A DNA stretch of 64,000 nt from Bacteroidales bacterium (GTDB lineage Bacteria > Bacteroidota > Bacteroidia > Bacteroidales > UBA1402): contig JAJFTH010000006.1 in NCBI GenBank assembly GCA_021373135.1, positions 388,119 to 452,118 of the forward strand, given 5' to 3'. Positions 1 through 9,463 of this stretch are shown here, piece after piece. The notes under the pieces were generated by a model. The model had not been told where the DNA came from and ran no database searches. It worked only from the letters and a program-made list of their open reading frames with translations. A program made the position numbers and the translations under genes. The stretch's first letter is position 1. The number at the start of each line of letters is the position of its first letter.

Positions 1-1169
1 TTACGGAATATACAGATACAGTAAAACACTTGGAAGGCTTTTTTAAAGCAAAATATAATGGCAAAGTTCTCATTTGTGATGGTGGTATGACAGCAACTCT
101 TCATCATAAATTGAACGCTAATTTCAACGCTCAATTTAAAGGTGAACGAGATAATGATTACGACATACTGATTACAAGTGATAAGCTCTCAGAAGGCTTT
201 AATTTAAATCGTGCGGGTGTTATAATCAATTATGATATTCCGTGGAATCCAACAAGGGTAATTCAGCGTGTCGGGCGTATCAATCGTATTGGTTCAAAAG
301 TGTTCGATGAATTGTTTATTTACAACTTTTTTCCAAGTGAAGCTGGTTCAGGTGTAGTCCAGATTCGGGAAATTGCTATGCAGAAAATGTTTCTGATTCA
401 TAATGCTCTGGGTGAAGATTCCAAGATTTTTGACCCCAATGAAGAACCTACACCTGCTATGCTATTTAACAAGGTCAATGAAAATCCAGATATTGATGGA
501 GAGCAAAGCGTAGGAACACAGATAAGAAACAAGTATTTTGAGATTGAACAAACTCATCCAGAGATAATCAAGAAAATAGCTGATTTACCTACAAGGGTTA
601 AGTCAGGGAAACCATTTAGTCAAAATCAGGTTTGTGTTTTAAGGAGAAAAGGGTTGAGTTTATTTACTCATTTAATTTCAGATACGAATGCTGATAAACT
701 TGAAGTGAGCGAAATTACATTTGAGGAATTTTTGGACTTAGTTGAATGTGAATTTGATACACCCCAACTCATGCTTTCTTCAAAATTCTGGAAAGCATAT
801 AATGAAGTAAAAGATTTTAAAACAACAAGTAAGAAGGCCTTACCAGCAAAATCATTAGAAGCCAAAGCATTTGAAAATCTAAAATGTTCTTTAAAACTAT
901 TGAATCATACAGACGATAATCTTATTAATTTTATCAAGGTTCTTATTACTGATATTGATAAATACAAAACACTTTCAGATAGAACCCTAGGTCGTTTAGC
1001 CAGAAATCCATTGAACATTAAATCCCCCGAATCAGAAATAAAAACTTTTAAAGACGAAGTGCTTTGGATTAAAAACAGTTTGGGTGCCGATTACTTAGAT
1101 CGTATACTAAAACGAATTGAACATCAGAAAAATGAGGTGGTGATAGCTGTAGAGAATATGATAATATAG
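1..1169 (+). CDS. SNF2/superfamily-2 helicase-related protein, C-terminal part (5' end outside window)
   Basis: The frame is open from nt 3, with no stop before the listed TTG at 30. Helicase C-terminal motifs IV-VI are present: DILITSDKLSEGFNLNRAGVIINYDIPWNPTRVIQRVGRINRIGS (QRxGRxxR arginine finger). About 280 aa of unassigned C-terminal extension follows. Confidence 0.8.
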   Translation, partial: TEYTDTVKHLEGFFKAKYNGKVLICDGGMTATLHHKLNANFNAQFKGERDNDYDILITSDKLSEGFNLNRAGVIINYDIPWNPTRVIQRVGRINRIGSKVFDELFIYNFFPSEAGSGVVQIREIAMQKMFLIHNALGEDSKIFDPNEEPTPAMLFNKVNENPDIDGEQSVGTQIRNKYFEIEQTHPEIIKKIADLPTRVKSGKPFSQNQVCVLRRKGLSLFTHLISDTNADKLEVSEITFEEFLDLVECEFDTPQLMLSSKFWKAYNEVKDFKTTSKKALPAKSLEAKAFENLKCSLKLLNHTDDNLINFIKVLITDIDKYKTLSDRTLGRLARNPLNIKSPESEIKTFKDEVLWIKNSLGADYLDRILKRIEHQKNEVVIAVENMII

Positions 1170-1237
1170 AATGGAGATAAAATAGGGCTATCCCGATTTT
1201 GTGTAAAGGTTAGAGCAAGTCTTATGACTATTGTTAC

Positions 1238-1264
1238 AAAAAAAACGCAGCTTTACAACTGCGT
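1238..1264 (-). terminator. Rho-independent terminator closing the two-RT operon
   Basis: The minus strand reads ACGCAG-TTGTAAAG-CTGCGT followed by T8, about 100 nt downstream of the stop of the 730-aa RT gene. Confidence 0.7.
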
Positions 1265-1362
1265 TAAAATAATCTCGCTCAAGATTTTTTTTAAGGATTC
1301 TGCAAGCAGAATAAGAATAAACTTGTGTGTGAAGTCATTTCGAGCGGGTTTATTCTATATCT
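1238..1362 (-). ncRNA. Candidate DRT3-associated structured ncRNA (3' tail of the RT operon)
   Basis: The minus-strand RNA between the RT stop (1363) and the terminator has three structures. (1) A perfect 9-bp stem AGAATAAAC/GTTTATTCT (1348-1356 with 1314-1322) enclosing a 25-nt loop CCGCUCGAAAUGACUUCACACACAA. (2) A hairpin ATTCTG-CTTG-CAGAAT (1297-1312). (3) An A8 tract, then GAGCG (complementary to CGCUC in the first loop), then the terminator hairpin. There is no ORF. The assignment as a functional ncRNA is inference. Confidence 0.4.
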
Positions 1363-3555
1363 TTATGAGTACACCTCTTGGCATATTTTTGCATTTAATT
1401 CTTTTTCTAAATTAATCTTATCCCATTTTGTAAACCAATATTTCTGGTTCTTCTGAAAACCTATAATATCAGTTTGAATTGCATCATTAGGGATACCGTA
1501 CAAAGATAGTAGATTTTTCTTGTATACGCTTGCTATGTAAGGACATGTCAACAAATCAAACAGCAAAATTGTAAGTTCTGAACTTCTCCTTCGCTTCGTT
1601 TTATCTGTATTTTCTATCTTTAATGTTGTGTATGAAAGTATAGCTTCTTTAATACGTTGATATTGGCTATCATTGCCAACATAATAAAGTACTACTAATA
1701 TAGAAAAACAGTTTAAGTGATTCTTAAACATATATTCACCTGTTGTATTGTCTTTTGCACAATTAAAATATTCACAAAGTACAGGTTCGGAAAGTTGATA
1801 TTCATTTCCAAGTTCTTTCAAAACAATCAATAGATACAACGTTTCTACTTGCACATGTTCAACACATTTATTCTTTTCTAAAATTAATCGAATTTCATCT
1901 TGAATCTTTTTCAAGACTAAATCACGATTAACACTTTGGAATCTCAAAGCCTTTGACTTCTTAAAATTATAAATTCCTTTATAATAGTTGATTATAGTCG
2001 TGAGTATTACCGTCAATTTAATAGTAGAATTTACTTTGGGGTAAACCGTATAAAGAAAGAAGACGAAATCTAAAATATTGAGAATAAACGTTGTTAGTCG
2101 TTTTTCTAAGTTGTATTTTTTTCGACATTCTTTTTCATCGAATTTCCCTTCTTTTTCCAACTCAGCGTATTGCTTATACTTCAAATCAAACTTCTTGAAA
2201 ATGTTCTCTATCTTTCTTGAGATAACGACCAATGTGTAATTTAGCACATCTTTGTATTCAACGTTTGTTTCTTTGAGAATAGTTTTGAATTTTGCTGATA
2301 GTTTATTAGGATTAAAGTAAATCGTAAATTTATCAGCAATTTTTTCGAATGGGGTATCATCTTCGCAACCTTCTTCTAATTCTTCATCTTCTTTTTCTGC
2401 TTCATCTATCCTAAATTTTATATTATCATCGAGTAGATCAACTATTTTTAGCTTCGCCATAGTTAACTCGGTAATAATAGGTTTGCTATATGATTTAGTC
2501 TTTGATTCGCTAATCCACATTTTAAACTCACGAAGTTCCAGTTTAAAAGATTTTAGAATTTCATCTTTTACATTATCACCATTATAAAATAAGAAATAGT
2601 CGTCAACGTAACGATAACACTCATAATCTCTTCTAAGTACAAGCCCCTGTCTAAAAAGATGATCCTCAACGTTCTTATCTACCTGCTGCAGTATTAGTTC
2701 TGCGAATATTCTTGAAAATTCGGGTCCAATCAAAATACCATTAGTTTCTCCATAGTTTATATTCTGCATGAACTCATCAAATTTTCCAGCAAAAGTATTT
2801 TCAGACAATGTGAGGTTATCTTTTATTATTTCTTTATTCAATAAGGCCCAGGGAAGAGAATGCGTATAGATACTATCGAAACATTTGGATATATCAAAAC
2901 GTATTAATTTGTCATATTTCTTTTCGGCTCTTTGGTAACGGTAGTCTTCATAAAAGCGGAAAATATTTGTATATTTCTTATAGGTAAAAAAAGTTTTTAA
3001 GTGCTCATATTCATTAATATTAACCTCTATGCTATCATCCTTTAATCCTGATTTTTGCTTGTGTAACTTGTCATTATAGAATATGTATTTTGCTACCTCT
3101 GATGGTCGTCTAATTGAAAAACTACTAATATTGCAATAATACAATATCAATTCTTTATACTTTTCATAAAATTCTATAATGTCAATTTGGTTTTTAGGAT
3201 GAATAACTGCTAATTCACGAAATTCTTTCTCTTTATGGGTAATCTTATAAACAAATGGTATTCTACGTTGATTCCTATTCAAATCAAAACTGTTATTTTG
3301 AATAGGTTCATTTGGTTTACATCCGAAAAGGAGCTTGATTATGTGAAGTAAAGTGTCTTTTTTCTTTTCTGTCAACCCTTTTTTATTAGAATTCCAATAA
3401 ATTTTATTATCTCGAATCTCTACCCCATAGGTAACTAAGAACCGATAAAAATAACGATTTGAAAAAATAATAGGAATTTCAAACGGCAGGACATCGGATA
3501 GAACAACTCTTTCCTTCTTGTATTTTAATCGTATTTTTCTTTTATATCGTTTCAT
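1363..3555 (-). CDS. drt3b: Reverse transcriptase, UG/Abi defence-associated class; the larger partner of a two-RT module (UG8/Drt3b-like)
   Basis: 730 aa. RT motif A is LIRFDISKCFDSIYTH, the motif B region is NGILIGPEFSRIFAELIL, and catalytic motif C is YRYVDDYFLFY. A helical C-terminal extension of about 330 aa follows. The start overlaps the stop of the upstream RT by 14 nt. The symbol is assigned from architecture (two adjacent dissimilar RTs) and relative size, not from a sequence search. Confidence 0.65.
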   Translation of the reverse strand: MKRYKRKIRLKYKKERVVLSDVLPFEIPIIFSNRYFYRFLVTYGVEIRDNKIYWNSNKKGLTEKKKDTLLHIIKLLFGCKPNEPIQNNSFDLNRNQRRIPFVYKITHKEKEFRELAVIHPKNQIDIIEFYEKYKELILYYCNISSFSIRRPSEVAKYIFYNDKLHKQKSGLKDDSIEVNINEYEHLKTFFTYKKYTNIFRFYEDYRYQRAEKKYDKLIRFDISKCFDSIYTHSLPWALLNKEIIKDNLTLSENTFAGKFDEFMQNINYGETNGILIGPEFSRIFAELILQQVDKNVEDHLFRQGLVLRRDYECYRYVDDYFLFYNGDNVKDEILKSFKLELREFKMWISESKTKSYSKPIITELTMAKLKIVDLLDDNIKFRIDEAEKEDEELEEGCEDDTPFEKIADKFTIYFNPNKLSAKFKTILKETNVEYKDVLNYTLVVISRKIENIFKKFDLKYKQYAELEKEGKFDEKECRKKYNLEKRLTTFILNILDFVFFLYTVYPKVNSTIKLTVILTTIINYYKGIYNFKKSKALRFQSVNRDLVLKKIQDEIRLILEKNKCVEHVQVETLYLLIVLKELGNEYQLSEPVLCEYFNCAKDNTTGEYMFKNHLNCFSILVVLYYVGNDSQYQRIKEAILSYTTLKIENTDKTKRRRSSELTILLFDLLTCPYIASVYKKNLLSLYGIPNDAIQTDIIGFQKNQKYWFTKWDKINLEKELNAKICQEVYS

Positions 3556-4996
3556 CTGTCCAAATTCTTTTTAAAATATTCATCTCTTTAATTTTGAATT
3601 TATGGAACCTCTTATCTTCAAAGCCTTTTTGAAATGAAAAACTTTGTTTAATTTGACTTTTTAGTTTTTCAATATTAATGGGTAATTCTGAATAAGGTAC
3701 TAAGTTACTATGTACCATTTTTGTTAAGAAATCATCTAAAGATTTCAAGTCTTTCAGACCATTTTTTTCTTTATCAAGCAAGCTGTTTGAGAAATAAACG
3801 CCAATCTTAACGCCTTTTTTACTATTTATTAGATTCGTATTACCTGTAAGCATTCTTAAACAATCAAATAATATTTTTCGTGCCTTACGTTCGTCATACT
3901 TACTTTCATTATTATATGTGTCAAATGATAATTTTATACGTGATTTATACTTGTCAATCTTGTTCTCTGATAAATTTACAGATAGCCGATAATCAATAAA
4001 ATCCTCTTTTGCTTTAATCCCCAATGTATTAAACCTATATCCAAGATAGTTTATACTACTATTAAAACCATCAACCTTGTTAAGCATATCTACTAATTGT
4101 GTCTTAGGATCTGTCACAGGTTTTAATTCCAACCTCGCACTTGTTATAATTTTATTGACTTCCTCAAAATAGTTTGTACTGCTACTTTTTGTGTTCGGTG
4201 TAATGATGATAAATATGTCGTCAACATAACGGGCATAAAAGGTAACATGTTCAAGAGATTTGATTTTACTATCAATATCACGCATATAAAGCTCTACAAG
4301 ATATGCGCTTATTCCGATGCCTCTTGGTACTCCTTTTTTTACTTCAAATTCTCTTAGGTTTTTTTTTGCCTCATATTCTTCAATAATTTCTGCAATGAAT
4401 TTCTTTGACTGATAATTCAGTAATGTATTTTGTTCTACCTTCTCCAAAAGTTCTACTTGAGGAATGCTCTCATAGAAACTTTTAATATCAGTCCTGATTA
4501 TGTATTTTGGGAAATTATCGCTTAACAATAGTTTGATCTGCTTTAGAATGCTGTACCTGTCTGCTTGTTTTACTTTAAAAGTTTTTCTGATATTGTATTG
4601 TAGTTGTTTAATGGCATAAAACACTTCCAAACTATCCCCCAATTGATATACGGGCTTCCCTTTACGTTCTTCAATGTTTATAGTAAATCTAAAACTATCA
4701 TTATTTACATTTGTACTAATTCTCTTAACCTGATCATACAGAATGTCATCCTTCTTTTTCTTGCACTCTTTTATTTTGCAATTATTTTCATCCTTAATTG
4801 ATTGATACTCTTCCTTTGTAATTATACCATCTTTTCGCTCTCTTGATTTCTCATTAATCTCAGCCTTTAAAGATTTAATGTCCTTTATCAAATCAATATA
4901 CTTTGCAGGGAACATCTCTTTTTTGAGATTTCCCTTACGGTTCTCAATTTGAAAAATGTTCCGAAAATTCTCAGCAGAAAACGATTGATCAAGCAT
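3542..4996 (-). CDS. drt3a: Reverse transcriptase, UG/Abi defence-associated class; the smaller partner of a two-RT module (UG3/Drt3a-like)
   Basis: 484 aa. RT motif A is IIRTDIKSFYESIP, motif B is GVPRGIGISAYLVELYM, catalytic motif C is YARYVDDIFII and the motif E region is INYLGYRF. It is the first gene of the pair. The symbol is assigned from architecture, not from a search. Confidence 0.65.
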   Translation of the reverse strand: MLDQSFSAENFRNIFQIENRKGNLKKEMFPAKYIDLIKDIKSLKAEINEKSRERKDGIITKEEYQSIKDENNCKIKECKKKKDDILYDQVKRISTNVNNDSFRFTINIEERKGKPVYQLGDSLEVFYAIKQLQYNIRKTFKVKQADRYSILKQIKLLLSDNFPKYIIRTDIKSFYESIPQVELLEKVEQNTLLNYQSKKFIAEIIEEYEAKKNLREFEVKKGVPRGIGISAYLVELYMRDIDSKIKSLEHVTFYARYVDDIFIIITPNTKSSSTNYFEEVNKIITSARLELKPVTDPKTQLVDMLNKVDGFNSSINYLGYRFNTLGIKAKEDFIDYRLSVNLSENKIDKYKSRIKLSFDTYNNESKYDERKARKILFDCLRMLTGNTNLINSKKGVKIGVYFSNSLLDKEKNGLKDLKSLDDFLTKMVHSNLVPYSELPINIEKLKSQIKQSFSFQKGFEDKRFHKFKIKEMNILKRIWTDETI

Positions 4997-5806
4997 TATA
5001 GTTATTAGTTTTTTCGTTTAAACAAACAACTCTCTTACATCAACTTTTAGAGTTTTAGCTATTGTAAGAAAGTCTTGAATGAAGGTTGTGATTCATTTGT
5101 ACACCAATGAGAAATTGTTGCTTAATTTTTAAGGTTATCAGCTAGTCATTTTCCTGTACACTTTGCTCAGCTTAATTGATTCAGCTCCGTTTGTCAATTT
5201 ATTGATGTGCTTTGCAAATGTATTGATTTGCTTTCTATTTATAATAAATTACTAACAATTATGTTTTCAAGATATTCGAAAATATTAATAGTCTATACAA
5301 AATTTATCGTAATATTTTCACGTTTTTATCTATAAAACATCTCCTATGAAAAGAATTAATAATGCAATACATTCTTGAAATTGACTTTTCTCGGAACATA
5401 AAGGATGAAATTAAAAAGTAATTAGTGCAACTTGATGTCTTGAGATATATAAATCACTATAATCATTTAGGTAATACTGCTTCAATGCAAAGTAAGTCAG
5501 GTGTCTCAAAGTGGCTTTTTTCCCATTATTTTGATACATTTTTATATTGACACTAAATACTGGCAAAGCCAAGGTTTTGAGTAAATGATTAACACTTGAT
5601 CGGATTTTTCCCATCATTGAAAATTTTTCCTACAATTCAAACACCGAACCGTATTACACGGGATCTCTGTCCAGGAATGATCTCCAGTGATTTTCTGTAA
5701 ACGACTATTCATAGTACTTACGTGAGTTTTGTTGAGATAAAAGACTTGTTTGCAACTCCATATCCTGGACGTGCAGCTTTTCCGTCCAGAAGTGACGATC
5801 CTTAAC

Positions 5807-5846
5807 CAAAGATAAGGGGGCCAAATACACCGTACTCAGCCCCCCC
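5807..5846 (-). terminator. Probable terminator of the primase-helicase gene
   Basis: The minus strand just after the stop at 5872 reads GGGGGGGC-(17-nt loop)-GGCCCCC followed by TTATCTTTGG. The G:C stem pairs 5816-5820 with the C-run at 5840-5846. The U-tract is imperfect. Confidence 0.4.
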
Positions 5847-5871
5847 AACTATAAGTAATTTATTAGCCCCT

Positions 5872-8073
5872 TCAAAAATCTTCATCTTCGAGATGAGCTT
5901 TTCGAAAACTTTTATCATTGAGATCCCAAGATACTGCATCTGATGGTAGGTGCTTGATTATCTCAGAATTCGAGCCTATACAATAACAGGTTGATTTCTT
6001 CTTCCCGATTCGTACTCTATCAATTTTCAATTCAACCATCAGATTTCCAATTGATTTTGAATTGATCATCTTAGATAGTCTCCCGTATTTCTCGTTAAGA
6101 GTCTGAAGTAGATCTAAGCTGGTGATATTGAAAACGTCCTTTCCGTTCCTTGGTGCTTCGATATATTCATCAAAGATCAGATCCAAATCGGATACCTGAC
6201 GGTAATCTACAAACAACTCCTTTAGCATTTTATCGTCTGTATATTCATAAGAGTATTTGAAACCATTCTTGTACAGTCGATATGCTTCCATGAATAGTTC
6301 ATCAAGCTTTAACATGTCCAGGCTATTATAGTGGATTTTGCCTACCTCAATTGGTAGGATTCTTCGGTTCTGCTTTTCTTTTACTACGAAAAGGTTGTTC
6401 CCAGACCCAGCAAAGGATGCTCTCCTTTTAATATTGCTGATTCTTCTATCATATTTACGTCTTGTCGTTAGCTCCTTTGTGGATAATAGATTTTTGAATG
6501 ACTTCTCTGCTTCATAGGTTCTACCATCCATCTCGTCATCAATGATTAACAAGCCTTGCCCCATGATCACCTTGAAATCATCGTCAAACGTTAGTTCATG
6601 CTCCATTATGTACTGATGAAGGTCTACAGGTAGCACAAATTTTCTAAGCAATGTTGACTTCCCTATCCCCTGCTGGTTACTAAGGATTGAAAGGAAAAAC
6701 TCATTTGGATATTCACCGTCAAGAGCCTGAGCTATCATTCCAACGTACCACTTCCTAAAAAAATGAACCACTGTCGCTTTATTGACGCTATCGTTCTTCA
6801 GATCCATACAGTTGACCCATTGTTCGAAATTACCCTCCGAAACGCAGTTTTCATGCTTTTCGATGAAATCCAGTATGGGATTGAATTGTGTAATATAAGT
6901 TGACTTGATAACTTCCTCAAAACTCGATCTTGGAATAATCTTGCCGTAGTGCTTTTTCAGGTCTATGGATAATGTATTGTATTCCAGTTCTGTTATTATT
7001 TTGCCATTCAATGTAAGATCTTGAAGAAAGGTGTCATATCGAACCCCTCTTCCATTTAGGTATTCAGCAATTTGATCTTCCGATACTCTATCAGCCTTTC
7101 CCTGTCCTGTAGAAGATGTATTCTCCAATGGAAATCCGAGCTCTTCCAATTTTGTTAGGTACTTACGTTTGTCTTCTTCTTTTTCCAATACCTGTAGCAC
7201 CTGATAATGATTGTATGGCTTTGAAGGTTCAAAGTCGGTGGAAGAGCTGAAGCATATGAATGTTTTTGTGTCTTTATAGTAATAACCTGAGTGGGTACCA
7301 GTAGAATTCGGACGATTGAGATATACCTTTTCATCATCTTCTTTGGCAATTTCCCAGCCATTTTTCTCAAACAGCTCCAAAATATTGAATTCATCGTTGA
7401 ACCTGTTTATGGCGCTTTCCTTGTAACTACCAAAGGTCTTATTGTTTACTTTTCGGTTTAAAGACCTAGCTACAGTCAGCAGTTGGTCACGTTCTGATTC
7501 CGTAATGACGGGAATCTCGTAAACCAACTTTTCCATATCAAAGGTTCCATTTTTTACCAGATAGTGAGACTTCTGGTGGCAAAAGTAACCTCCCTCACCA
7601 CGGGTTTCGATGATTACTTCACCATCCGTGTTGTGTGCCAGCTTTTGATTCCCGTCAACTCCATCAGAACATCTATATATTAGGTGAAAACCTCCATTGA
7701 CAGTTGTCTGACAAACAAGTCTGCAAATCAAGTTTTCTGGTAAAAGCTTGACAAATTCATCAAATATTGTTTTCTCAGGATCATTTTTCAGATCAAAGTC
7801 CAGAACTTCAAGGTTTCCAGATACTTTTCCACAAATGATACCAATATACCCGCCACTGAGATAGTGATCATGCCATAATTCGATAGGGCTCTCTTCCTCT
7901 CTATACTGAACCCACTTGTCATAGGGCTTTTTCTCTGTACTTGTTTTAATGATGGATAGACCAAATTTTTGTTCTTGGCTTACTGGGTACTGATTGCCAG
8001 TTGCCTCCATTGTCTTTACTGCTACTTCCTCATTTTCCATTTTCGTTAAGGTTAATACTCGTGTTATTTTCAT
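5872..8073 (-). CDS. Bifunctional prim-pol domain / P-loop (VirE/D5-like) helicase replication protein of a mobile element
   Basis: 733 aa. The N-terminal prim-pol-like region is GGYIGIICGKVSGNLEVLDFDLK ... GGFHLIYRC ... ETRGEGGYF. The C-terminal NTPase has Walker A (SNQQGIGKSTLLRKF) and Walker B (GLLIIDDEMDG). The true start may be the ATG at 8040 (MENEEV) or 8010. Confidence 0.75.
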   Translation of the reverse strand: MKITRVLTLTKMENEEVAVKTMEATGNQYPVSQEQKFGLSIIKTSTEKKPYDKWVQYREEESPIELWHDHYLSGGYIGIICGKVSGNLEVLDFDLKNDPEKTIFDEFVKLLPENLICRLVCQTTVNGGFHLIYRCSDGVDGNQKLAHNTDGEVIIETRGEGGYFCHQKSHYLVKNGTFDMEKLVYEIPVITESERDQLLTVARSLNRKVNNKTFGSYKESAINRFNDEFNILELFEKNGWEIAKEDDEKVYLNRPNSTGTHSGYYYKDTKTFICFSSSTDFEPSKPYNHYQVLQVLEKEEDKRKYLTKLEELGFPLENTSSTGQGKADRVSEDQIAEYLNGRGVRYDTFLQDLTLNGKIITELEYNTLSIDLKKHYGKIIPRSSFEEVIKSTYITQFNPILDFIEKHENCVSEGNFEQWVNCMDLKNDSVNKATVVHFFRKWYVGMIAQALDGEYPNEFFLSILSNQQGIGKSTLLRKFVLPVDLHQYIMEHELTFDDDFKVIMGQGLLIIDDEMDGRTYEAEKSFKNLLSTKELTTRRKYDRRISNIKRRASFAGSGNNLFVVKEKQNRRILPIEVGKIHYNSLDMLKLDELFMEAYRLYKNGFKYSYEYTDDKMLKELFVDYRQVSDLDLIFDEYIEAPRNGKDVFNITSLDLLQTLNEKYGRLSKMINSKSIGNLMVELKIDRVRIGKKKSTCYCIGSNSEIIKHLPSDAVSWDLNDKSFRKAHLEDEDF

Positions 8074-8209
8074 TTGTCATCAAGGTCACGTAAAGCAACT
8101 GCTTGATAAATGCAGCCTTAGGTAAATAGCTTTCCTTGGCTTTCTTCCCAATTTTCTCCATTAGATCAGAGTCTAAATAAAGATTGATCCTTTTTTGATT
8201 CGTTTTCAT
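8030..8209 (-). CDS. Ribbon-helix-helix (CopG/Arc-like) small DNA-binding protein, 59 codons, not in the supplied ORF track
   Basis: My hand translation from the ATG at 8209 gives MKTNQKRINLYLDSDLMEKIGKKAKESYLPKAAFIKQLLYVTLMTNENNTSINLNENGK with a stop at 8030-8032. KRINLYLDSDL (beta strand) plus two short helices is the RHH pattern. The 3' end overlaps the primase start region, with ATG 8040 embedded in ...GAAAATGGAAAATGA. Confidence 0.55.
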   Translation of the reverse strand: MKTNQKRINLYLDSDLMEKIGKKAKESYLPKAAFIKQLLYVTLMTNENNTSINLNENGK

Positions 8210-8410
8210 TCTACTTTAATTTTATTTATTATTTATGTTCCCACATCTCTGTGGACTTCGACTATATATATTGTATTATAGTCTAGATTTTTATGTTTTA
8301 AACACTTAATGGAAATTTATTGTGCCATTCTAGCAATAAATATTACGATAAATGTTTTTTTATCTCAATTCGTGATATTTTTTTTCAATCAACCATCGTT
8401 TTTTTTCGAA

Positions 8411-8550
8411 TGGACAGGATGGACACGATATTTTTCACTTTTAAATGATTTTTTCTGTACTTGTACTTCAAAGGGCAGGTACCCGTATTCGGGAGTACAG
8501 TGTATATTTAAAGTTTTCAGAATGTATGAATTATCGTGTCCTTAGTGTCC
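8411..8550. repeat. Nested inverted-repeat element with iterated GGACA(C) boxes (candidate ori/oriT or protein-binding site)
   Basis: TGGACAggaTGGACACGATA (8411-8430) faces TATCGTGTCCttaGTGTCC (8532-8550); the outer arms GGACACGATA/TATCGTGTCC are a perfect 10-bp match. Inside are CTGTACT (8455-8461)/AGTACAG (8494-8500) and CCCG-TATT-CGGG (8482-8493). TGTACTT occurs twice in tandem. Confidence 0.4.
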
Positions 8551-9250
8551 GCATGTCTTTGGTGCTGCTGGGAACAAAAAAAATGACTATAATTTAGGAA
8601 GGGGCAAATTCTTCATCCTTGGTTATTTTTCAACCAAGTATTGATTCTTATACAGATCCCATTTTTAATTATACTGGCGTTATTGATCGCCAATTCTTTT
8701 GTACCATAGTTCTACACTTCCTTCCGTTTAAGTTGAAAGCAGCGTTGCCCTGGGTGATCTATATGACCGCCTATGGTTTCATCTTTATAGATTGATGCTG
8801 ATAAAGACCCAATGGTAAAAATAGCTATTGGTAACGGGTCTTAGTAGTGATTTTCATCACCTTTTTCGCAAATGTACTGTTCTGGATCGAAAAAAACAGT
8901 TTTTGAGTGTTAAATATTAGTTAATATTAAAAAGTAATTTAATTTAAATTCATATGGTTGATTAACAGGTATTTGAGCTTGAAATAAACTAGGCGTCTTT
9001 CTAAAAAAGTTGGAAAAAAATTTTGGAAATTTTAGACGTATAGCCGTCTATCCATATATAGGCAACATTTACCCCAGGGGATGGGTATAGGATTCCTTCC
9101 CCCTGGTACGGGAGGAAGCCCTTTTTAATGAGAAGCTTCTATAGAAAAGCAATAGTTAGGTTAACTTAAAGACTTGTTCTGTCTCAAATTTCTAGTGGAA
9201 ATGAACGGAATTTCATGATTATTTTCCTGAAAAAGTTTGAGAAAAGTTTG

Positions 9251-9290
9251 AGAAATAAAAAGCACCTACAAAAATTAATTTGTAAGTGCT
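9251..9290 (-). terminator. Terminator downstream of tRNA-Met
   Basis: The minus strand reads AGCACTTACA-AATTAATTTT-TGTAGGTGCT (10-bp stem with one mismatch) followed by TTTTATTTCT. It starts 11 nt after the tRNA 3' end. Confidence 0.55.
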
Positions 9291-9300
9291 TGATACTGAG

Positions 9301-9375
9301 TGGGCCCAACAGGGCTTGAACCTGTGACCCCCTGATTATGAGTCAGGTGCTACTAACCAACTGAGCTATAGGCCC
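9301..9375 (-). tRNA. tRNA with CAT anticodon, most like elongator tRNA-Met (tRNA-Ile2 with lysidine cannot be excluded)
   Basis: The reverse complement is GGGCCTATAGCTCAGTTGGTTAGTAGCACCTGACTCATAATCAGGGGGTCACAGGTTCAAGCCCTGTTGGGCCCA. It has a 7-bp acceptor stem, the anticodon stem-loop CCTGA-CTCATAA-TCAGG, and the T-arm CAGGTTCAAGCCCTG. CCA is not encoded. Confidence 0.9.
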
Positions 9376-9455: not shown

Positions 9456-9463
9456 TATATTTG
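9456..9463 (+). promoter_or_regulatory. Candidate Bacteroidetes -7 promoter box for the HAD-ribF gene
   Basis: TATATTTG matches the TAnnTTTG -7 consensus and lies 46 nt upstream of ATG 9509. No well-spaced -33 TTTG was found. Confidence 0.35.

Follow-up and report, generated by a model that had tools for sequence, protein, structure and literature searches.

DRT type 3 (DRT3) was reportedly defined by Gao et al. 2020 as two different reverse transcriptases (RTs), UG3 and UG8, together with a required noncoding RNA (ncRNA). Here, we describe a locus of this type, very probably intact, in a 64,000-nucleotide stretch of the genome of a gut Bacteroidales bacterium (GenBank assembly GCA_021373135.1, contig JAJFTH010000006.1, positions 388,119 to 452,118 of the forward strand), which is referred to as the window and supplies the coordinates used below. 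The described system that serves for comparison is DRT3 of Escherichia coli. In that system, the UG3 protein, Drt3a, has been shown experimentally to use a loop sequence of the ncRNA, 5'-ACACAC-3', as the template for poly(dTdG), and the UG8 protein, Drt3b, works without a nucleic-acid template and primes on its penultimate residue, Y666 (Wang et al. 2026, PMC13174585). The product of Drt3b is poly(dCdA), with E22 and R241 serving as gates and R71 contributing, and the poly(dTdG) and poly(dCdA) strands form double-stranded DNA (PMC13174585). DRT3 DNA is limited by RecBCD, and Gam, a phage inhibitor of RecBCD, triggers abortive infection; the YVDD boxes of both RTs are required for defence, and a covariance model based on the E. 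coli ncRNA found only 32-41 ncRNAs (PMC13174585).

The DRT3 of Deng et al. (Science 2026) is summarized in reviews as a 6:6:6 Drt3a:Drt3b:ncRNA complex with poly(GT/AC) DNA (PMC13314766, PMC13213688), and a commentary on that work names Glu26 and Arg253 in base selection (PMC13213688). According to Mestre et al. 2022 (PMC9226505), the ncRNA of UG3 + UG8 systems lies downstream of UG8 and exposes a conserved 'CACACA'-like motif in 17 groups, at variable distance from the gene and with little sequence similarity between the groups. The same paper describes a Terrabacteria-type arrangement, in which UG3 and UG8 are often on opposite strands and the ncRNA is upstream of UG8.

With a probability that we place at roughly 0.92, positions 1235-5229 of the window, minus strand, hold an intact DRT3 (UG3 + UG8 + ncRNA) anti-phage cassette. 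Its two proteins are encoded by overlapping open reading frames (ORFs), for which a first-pass annotation of this DNA had given exact coordinates without stating the strand; both are on the minus strand:

3542-4996 (-): drt3a (UG3, Class 2 RT), 484 aa, ATG start, YVDD intact; assigned from PADLOC, NCBIfam, PDB and GenBank
1363-3555 (-): drt3b (UG8, Class 1 RT with an alpha-helical repeat domain and a C-terminal tail), 730 aa, ATG start; assigned from PADLOC, NCBIfam and PDB

The overlap is 14 nt, with the drt3b ATG at 3555-3553 and the drt3a TAA at 3544-3542. The RT motifs quoted in the first-pass annotation are all present at their places: IIRTDIKSFYESIP at residue 166, GVPRGIGISAYLVELYM at 222, YARYVDDIFII at 254 and INYLGYRF at 315 of Drt3a, and LIRFDISKCFDSIYTH at residue 217, NGILIGPEFSRIFAELIL at 272 and YRYVDDYFLFY at 314 of Drt3b. 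The YVDD catalytic box is intact in both RTs (within YARYVDD in Drt3a and YRYVDD in Drt3b). The earlier suggestion that both RTs may polymerise agrees, by analogy, with the published need for both YVDD boxes (PMC13174585). Pfam detects RVT_1 alone in each protein and no endonuclease, maturase or Cas domain, and a scan of positions 1-9000 with Rfam at E<=1 returned no group II intron, retron or other relevant RNA, as the first-pass annotation had stated for such domains and for intron-like RNA.

Profile searches assign each RT to its DRT3 family by a wide margin, which bears out the earlier labels of Drt3a/UG3-like for the 484-aa protein and Drt3b/UG8-like for the 730-aa protein through the hidden Markov model (HMM) check that had been proposed. 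In PADLOC, the 484-aa protein matches Drt3a with an E-value of 9e-109 (362.6 bits), followed by RT_UG17 at 5e-29 (99.5 bits), and the 730-aa protein matches Drt3b at 4e-195, followed by Drt6 at 3e-42. The NCBIfam model NF041747 (Drt3a) scores 381 bits against a cut-off of 200, with profile positions 1-412 of 412 aligned, and NF041748 (Drt3b) scores 714.5 bits against a cut-off of 350 in a full-length alignment. Among known structures, Drt3b matches PDB 26cz, a SUMO-fused E. coli Drt3b of 667 aa, at 4e-81 and is aligned through residues 93-686. Both proteins also match chains of the DRT3 of Deng et al. (PDB 9z6y/9z6z), Drt3b matching 9z6y chain H at 4.5e-59 and Drt3a matching chain A at 3e-27. 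The fold of the proteins is settled by these matches to experimentally solved DRT3 enzymes. Exact sequence matches in GenBank are named 'MAG: antiviral reverse transcriptase Drt3a [Bacteroidales bacterium]' (MCE5175506.1) and 'MAG: antiviral reverse transcriptase Drt3b [Bacteroidales bacterium]' (MCE5175505.1), members of the 90% clusters in Bacteroides intestinalis carry the same Drt3a/Drt3b names, and a plasmid of Bacteroides finegoldii likewise has genes that NCBI labels drt3a/drt3b. NCBIfam equivalog models set product names in PGAP. The family, its mechanism, the ncRNA motif and the names of these proteins are all already public.

The residues that carry out catalysis, gating and priming in E. 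coli Drt3b have counterparts in the window protein, given here as E. coli residue followed by window residue:

E22, E26 (protein alignment)
R71, R113 (protein alignment)
D182, D221 (protein alignment)
F187, F226 (protein alignment)
R241, R282 (protein alignment)
Y276-V-D-D, Y316-V-D-D (protein alignment)
penultimate Y666 (of 667), penultimate Y729 (of 730)

The last of these matches is by position only, the final 50 residues being unaligned by BLAST. The matched catalytic and gating residues and the priming tyrosine are invariant in 18 Bacteroidota homologues that are 47-80% identical to the window protein. For the Glu26 and Arg253 named in the commentary on Deng et al., possible counterparts in the window protein are E26 and R282, which occupy the positions of E22 and R241 of E. 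coli Drt3b. Comparison with two related loci of 88% nucleotide identity, L010 and L001, gives ratios of nonsynonymous to synonymous substitution rates (dN/dS) of 0.11-0.12 for drt3a and 0.08-0.10 for drt3b, and both genes are under purifying selection.

The pairing of the two genes is general. Scans of reference genomes and metagenomes yielded 88 DRT3 loci, and a Drt3a homologue lies directly upstream of drt3b, on the same strand, in every one that has upstream DNA; the five loci of the 88 without Drt3a are all contigs that end 52-233 nt upstream of drt3b. Co-occurrence, which the first-pass annotation had named as a check, is thus the rule. All complete Drt3b genes end with a tyrosine as the last or penultimate residue. 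In 81 of the 82 loci with at least 100 nt of downstream sequence, ACACAC is found 24-129 nt after the drt3b stop codon, compared to a chance expectation of ~0.03 per 130 nt calculated from base composition. The exception, L052 (4154-4258), has ACACGC at the template position, yet it receives the top score of our ncRNA model, 83.7 bits; this sequence may stem from faulty assembly or, alternatively, may be a natural variant of the template, which would alter the repeat. A scan of viral contigs for Drt3a gave no match.

Downstream of drt3b, the window carries the third component, the ncRNA that DRT3 requires, as a tail with the published ACACAC template. Its elements are, in the order of transcription:

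1238-1362 (-): DRT3 ncRNA, the 3' tail of the operon, ending at the terminator (covariance model, conservation)
1348-1356 (-): stem P1, 5' strand AGAAUAAAC, pairing with 1322-1314
1340-1346 (-): pseudoknot, 5' strand CGCUCGA, pairing with 1282-1276
1325-1330 (-): putative template 5'-ACACAC-3' for poly(dTdG) synthesis by Drt3a (from sequence; predicted to be unpaired; role from E. coli)
1314-1322 (-): stem P1, 3' strand GUUUAUUCU, starting 2 nt past the template and pairing with 1356-1348
1298-1311 (-): predicted hairpin UUCUGC-UU-GCAGAA (fold prediction)
1276-1282 (-): pseudoknot, 3' strand UUGAGCG, within a weak AAUC/GAUU hairpin at 1286-1271 (helix search)
1238-1265 (-): intrinsic terminator, a 9-bp stem AACGCAGUU/AGCUGCGUU followed by eight U (terminator scan, fold and sequence)

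The structured tail and strong terminator of the first-pass annotation are both recovered: the 125 nt past the drt3b stop are structured (z = -2.75 for a fold of the first 141 nt past the stop), the terminator-like hairpin proper, with a GC-containing stem, spans 1265-1244, and the U-run reaches 1238, exactly the end that had been given. In the window lineage, this strong terminator is separate and follows the vestigial AAUC/GAUU hairpin. The template lies 32 nt after the drt3b stop codon and P1 starts 7 nt after it; the RNA would therefore be either the tail of the operon transcript or the product of a promoter inside drt3b. A covariance model of our own, built from 27 ncRNAs of another clade, none from the clade of the window, and with the pseudoknot left out, finds a single significant match in the 64-kb window, at 1357-1239 (-), over the full model length (26.6 bits, E 2.4e-4). 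Tails from most other clades are detected by the same model as well. The core of the ncRNA shares 93.5% identity with that of L010 while the synonymous divergence (dS) of the genes is ~0.42-0.46, and this core is therefore better conserved than synonymous sites. The P1 helix of the window scores 20 with its own partner versus at best 12 with partners from 11 other families. The pseudoknot covaries in L014, where CACUCG is matched by UGAGUG, and single changes in L002, L016 and L013 are wobble-compatible. Rfam holds no family for the DRT3 tail RNA; its sole match here, to a snoRNA inside drt3b, is below threshold and was set aside as chance.

The tails of related loci were lined up on the template to find a common plan. 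In this plan, a 5' strand that starts a few nucleotides after the stop codon pairs with sequence 1-3 nt past ACACAC to form P1, which places the template at the 3' border of a closed loop. The nucleotides directly after the 5' strand of P1 pair with sequence ~40-55 nt downstream of the template; this partner is the loop of the terminator hairpin in most clades, and the interaction is therefore a pseudoknot. CMfinder, the program used by Mestre and colleagues, predicts no pseudoknots. One hairpin is found between P1 and the terminator, and in some clades a further hairpin directly precedes the template. Complementarity of P1 is kept across clades, with strand pairs such as AGAAUAAAC/GUUUAUUCU, UCAUGC/GCAUGA, AGGACGC/GCGUUCU, GUGCAGACC/GGUCUGUAC and others. 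The pseudoknot likewise takes more than 15 different helix sequences across clades (tails of L003-L088, for example, L025 3950-4054), including CGCUCGA/UUGAGCG, CCGUCC/GGACGG, UUCGUCC/GGACGAG, AAUCUCCAG/CUGGAGAUU, CAAACUUCAAA/UUUGAAGUUUG and CCGGCAAAU/GUUUGCCGG.

Pairs were counted in a MAFFT alignment of the 27 sequences of the largest ncRNA family, which was not fitted to the structure. In this alignment, 92% of cells pair, compared to 40-50% after a shift of the 3' partner by 1-3 columns, and changes on both sides are seen at 23/30 pairs; the observed values were reached by 0/500 shuffles. For the pseudoknot helix, pairing reaches 96% and 5/6 pairs have changed on both sides; in the counterpart of the 1298-1311 hairpin, 10/11 pairs have done so. 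No pairs were counted in the MAFFT alignment for the clade of the window itself, in which L013 and L014 have their helices displaced by one column. Helices were also compared among 12 ncRNA families, obtained by greedy clustering and rather coarse, by a search for contiguous helices under positional limits with partners from other families as the null. The mean P1 score is 16.2 with own partners versus 11.5 with those of other families (p = 3e-4), and the corresponding pseudoknot scores are 17.9 and 14.5 (p = 2e-5). Duplex energies over wide windows were dropped as too noisy in AU-rich sequence to tell true from false partners. The compact, pseudoknotted ncRNA layout in Bacteroidota appears to be new.

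Comparison with E. coli DRT3 (Gao et al. 2020; PMC13174585; PDB 26cz) was made with a reference locus found by DNA search of E. coli genomes (L091; drt3a 3001-4197, drt3b 4201-6204). Similar to the window, the E. coli locus has the order drt3a, drt3b, ncRNA, tightly packed on one strand, YVDD in both RTs, and a Drt3b with E/R/R gates, a penultimate priming tyrosine and an alpha-repeat domain. In both, ACACAC is placed at the 3' edge of a P1-closed loop, with the 3' strand of P1 beginning 1-2 nt past the template, and both copies reside on a mobile element (a P4-like satellite in E. coli; a low-GC island by a tRNA-Met gene in the window). The main differences are the lengths of the proteins and the arrangement of the RNA. 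Drt3b of the window is 63 aa longer than that of E. coli, with insertions at about 41-92 and 475-496, and Drt3a is 86 aa longer. The E. coli ncRNA, of ~165 nt, carries hairpins within the P1 loop and has its template ~128 nt after the stop codon and ~25 nt before the terminator, whereas the window ncRNA, of ~125 nt, has its template 32 nt after the stop codon, hairpins after P1 and a pseudoknot to the downstream hairpin. The predicted P1 of L091 consists of GUUAAAGGGU with GCCUUUUAGC, its 3' strand beginning 1 nt after ACACAC in the fold and 4 nt after it in the helix list. In addition, GUUGCGA at L091 6228-6234, which overlaps the end of the 5' strand of P1 and continues past it, can pair with UCGCGAU at 6301-6307, the loop of a hairpin 5' of the template. 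This pairing, seen in one sequence, may be the counterpart of the Bacteroidota pseudoknot. A natural DRT3 inactivation is found in Klebsiella pneumoniae subsp. ozaenae (L090 4824-5660), in which IS1 interrupts an E. coli-type drt3b after 244 codons.

The position of the ncRNA downstream of UG8 at variable distance, as given for groups 1-17 by Mestre et al. 2022 (PMC9226505), matches the 88 loci described here. The Terrabacteria-type arrangement was rejected for the window, where the genes are overlapping on the same strand and the ncRNA is downstream. Other DRT families share single aspects of the system. DRT10 (UG17) and DRT9 (UG28) resemble Drt3a in having a Class 2 RT, a short loop template beside a stem and a proposed telomerase-like logic, and they produce tandem-repeat or homopolymer DNA from a short ncRNA template. 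They differ in having a single RT, with or without a SLATT effector, in lacking a second, protein-templated RT and in their template sequences. An assignment of the window to DRT10 was discarded: RT_UG17 scores 99.5 bits versus 362.6 for Drt3a, the cassette holds no SLATT gene, and its flanks are a helicase fragment and a primase. AbiK, DRT4 (UG15) and DRT6 resemble Drt3b in belonging to Class 1, in joining an RT to an alpha-repeat fold family and in tyrosine priming, and their models give weaker matches; in contrast to DRT3, they make random or unpatterned single-stranded DNA and have no partner RT and no ncRNA.

The extent of the cassette is apparent from its close relatives (L001 and L009-L012, ~88% identity), with which homology ends sharply at 1235-1237. 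On the 5' side, the limit found by BLAST is ~5229 for L010-L012 and ~5114-5118 for L001 and L009; a separate alignment follows the L001 leader further, to the promoter box. The flanks of these relatives are unrelated to those of the window, and the moving unit is therefore 1235-5229. From these limits and flanks, the promoter-to-terminator DRT3 unit behaves as a portable cassette, and its sharp limits appear to be new. Two further elements lie at its 5' end:

5215-5222 (-): candidate Bacteroides-type -7 promoter box TACATTTG (TAnnTTTG); function predicted from sequence
5009-5187 (-): operon leader, the remnant (pseudogene) of a ~66-aa Cro/C1-type helix-turn-helix (HTH) gene (translations, tblastn)

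The box, at 5222-5215, fits TAnnTTTG, which we take to be the Bacteroides promoter consensus. It lies just inside the ~5229 limit and is kept as TACATTTG in the window, TACCTTTG in L010 and TATCTTTG in L001. The ~215 nt from the box to the drt3a ATG are the wreck of the HTH gene, of which remnants are also present at L010 1341-1538 and L001 2342-2538. When repaired, the HTH peptide matches HTH_26 (2e-10) and HTH_3 (3e-9). The window copy is the most decayed: its start codon has become ACG, its frame is interrupted by three stops, and it carries a 12-nt deletion as well as a frameshift; among relatives, L010-L012 have one in-frame stop and L001 and L009 a frameshift. The leader is 65% identical to that of L010, compared to 93.5% for the ncRNA core. 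Different HTH lesions in three lineages suggest that the system of this gut Bacteroides lineage may now run unrepressed, and this repeated loss of the leader HTH gene appears to be new. Intact HTH homologues head other defence-like cassettes on Bacteroidales plasmids, one type encoding type I restriction-modification and another an RNA-binding protein with SNF2.

The layout of the RNA and the fate of the leader can be joined into one description, in which Bacteroidota DRT3 has a compact ncRNA subtype of ~100-125 nt, outside the E. coli-based model, with the template ~30 nt after the stop codon, stem P1 and a pseudoknot to the terminator loop, and in which the regulator has been lost in this gut Bacteroides lineage. 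We give this combined description slightly less than an even chance. If the compact-subtype reading is true, formation of a correct 3' end would be coupled to the way in which the template loop folds, and the RNA would be the smallest natural scaffold for Drt3a. The first-pass proposal of a distinct subtype holds in a weak sense: protein identity of 30-31% and the differently arranged ncRNA speak for it, whereas all defining features of DRT3 are kept and GenBank already names the proteins Drt3a and Drt3b.

Every mark of DRT3 membership that can be looked for in sequence is present at the locus. Several observations nevertheless weigh against an intact DRT3 cassette. Identity to the E. coli pair is only 31% for Drt3b and 30% for Drt3a. 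An insertion of ~38 aa separates the Drt3b gate residues E26 and R113, the helical domain has ~22 aa extra, and Drt3a has extra, charged N-terminal sequence of ~55-85 aa, depending on whether 9z6y_A or E. coli Drt3a is the reference. The covariance-model match in the window is only moderately significant, and the hairpin around the 3' strand of the pseudoknot is down to 4 bp (AAUC/GAUU) in the window lineage. The Bacteroidota covariance model also fails to detect the E. coli ncRNA, which is arranged differently; homology of the RNAs therefore rests on the template motif and the layout of P1 and template, and the published E. coli-type model in turn likely misses the window RNA. The failure of the Bacteroidota model on the E. 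coli RNA fits both the sharing of a motif alone among the groups of Mestre and colleagues and the small yield (32-41) of the published model. The candidate promoter amounts to a consensus match, the pseudogene regulator shows that part of the cassette is decaying, the published trigger, inhibition of RecBCD by phage Gam, may not hold in Bacteroidales, and DRT3 of the window, and of Bacteroidota at large, is known from sequence alone.

Some of these observations would fit a decaying relic that is DRT3 by descent and has lost its function, since the HTH gene that heads the cassette is dead in the window and, by different lesions, in all close relatives, the leader has only 65% identity to L010, and the hairpin that holds the 3' pseudoknot strand is weakened. 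However, both RT ORFs are full length compared to their HMMs and keep all catalytic, gating and priming residues, dN/dS is 0.08-0.12, the ncRNA core is conserved above synonymous sites, and decay is confined to the HTH gene, such that a relic is very unlikely. The low identity to the E. coli pair, the insertion between two Drt3b gate residues, the different ncRNA topology and the ACACGC of the relative L052 could instead point to a DRT3-like pair with a different product or mechanism, for example, another repeat or a single-stranded product. The template of the window is exactly ACACAC and E26, R113, R282 and Y729 are invariant, so that neither determinant of product sequence differs from its E. 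coli counterpart; a different product is accordingly a shade harder to credit than a relic.

Least credible, with hardly any weight, is the chance neighbourhood of two unrelated single-gene RT systems, or an RT that belongs to a retron, group II intron, diversity-generating retroelement (DGR) or CRISPR array. Weaker matches to the RT_UG17, Drt2, Drt4, Drt6 and AbiK models would agree with such an origin, but matches to other UG/Abi models are ~80 to 150 orders of magnitude below those to Drt3a and Drt3b, and the ORFs overlap by 14 nt and always occur together. PADLOC/NCBIfam placement, Rfam and linkage rule out two independent single-RT systems, a DGR and a CRISPR-associated RT. The group II intron RT model TIGR04416 gives the two proteins 66.6 and 38.9 bits, far below its cut-off of 300, with no intron RNA in the Rfam scan, and the best retron model, RT_Ec107-like, reaches 20.8 bits, with no retron RNA in that scan.

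The intact DRT3 cassette, which we prefer to these alternatives, is located in a low-GC stretch of the window, 1-9375, with 29-39% GC compared to 40-47% elsewhere. This stretch ends at a tRNA-Met gene, 9300-9375 (-), the 3' end of which faces the island, and housekeeping genes (ribF, FKBP, rpoN, ispG) begin at 9461. No integrase is found within the window, and the other end of the island is therefore beyond its left edge. Neighbouring features are:

5872-8073 (-): 733-aa protein with an N-terminal primase-polymerase (PHROG 19930, 2e-40) and a C-terminal VapE/D5-type helicase
8030-8209 (-): small ribbon-helix-helix (Arc/CopG-like) ORF that precedes the primase-polymerase gene and overlaps its start
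5847-5813: 16-bp terminator-like hairpin after the primase-polymerase gene
1-1169 (+): C-terminal part of a SNF2-family helicase, with its frame open to the left window edge

The primase-polymerase/helicase and ribbon-helix-helix genes look like the replication module of an integrative element. The SNF2 fragment runs tail-to-tail toward the DRT3 terminator; its best PADLOC matches, to HKD+Snf2, BrxH and DrmD, fall far short of full length. The first-pass annotation had placed the RT pair on an island beside these genes, and the primase-polymerase and helicase neighbours are real; they are not conserved partners, however, as relatives carry the cassette in other flanks.

The most likely mechanism, taken over by homology from the E. 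coli systems, is as follows. A single transcript, probably initiated close to the TAnnTTTG box (5222-5215), would run through the dead HTH gene, drt3a and drt3b to the terminator at 1238. Drt3a would bind the ncRNA and copy the loop template 5'-ACACAC-3' (1330-1325) repeatedly into poly(dTdG), in a register fixed by stem P1, which lies just downstream of the template. Drt3b would use no nucleic-acid template; primed on its penultimate tyrosine, Y729, it would add alternating dC and dA to give poly(dCdA), gated by E26 and R282 with R113. A host exonuclease would normally hold the DNA product in check, and when a phage blocks this control, DNA would build up and the infection would be aborted.

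DRT3 is notable in that one of its enzymes writes a defined DNA repeat without a nucleic-acid template, as described for E. coli in 2026, and the present locus adds no new principle to that finding. It does prompt one to ask which trigger logic takes the place of RecBCD/Gam in Bacteroidales. Its use lies in comparison, as an intact DRT3 under strong constraint from a human-gut Bacteroidales that is ~30% identical to the E. coli system, with the template and the gating and priming residues unchanged. Comparison of the two, and of the smaller ncRNA in particular, could help to define the minimal RNA scaffold and the protein features that are truly essential.

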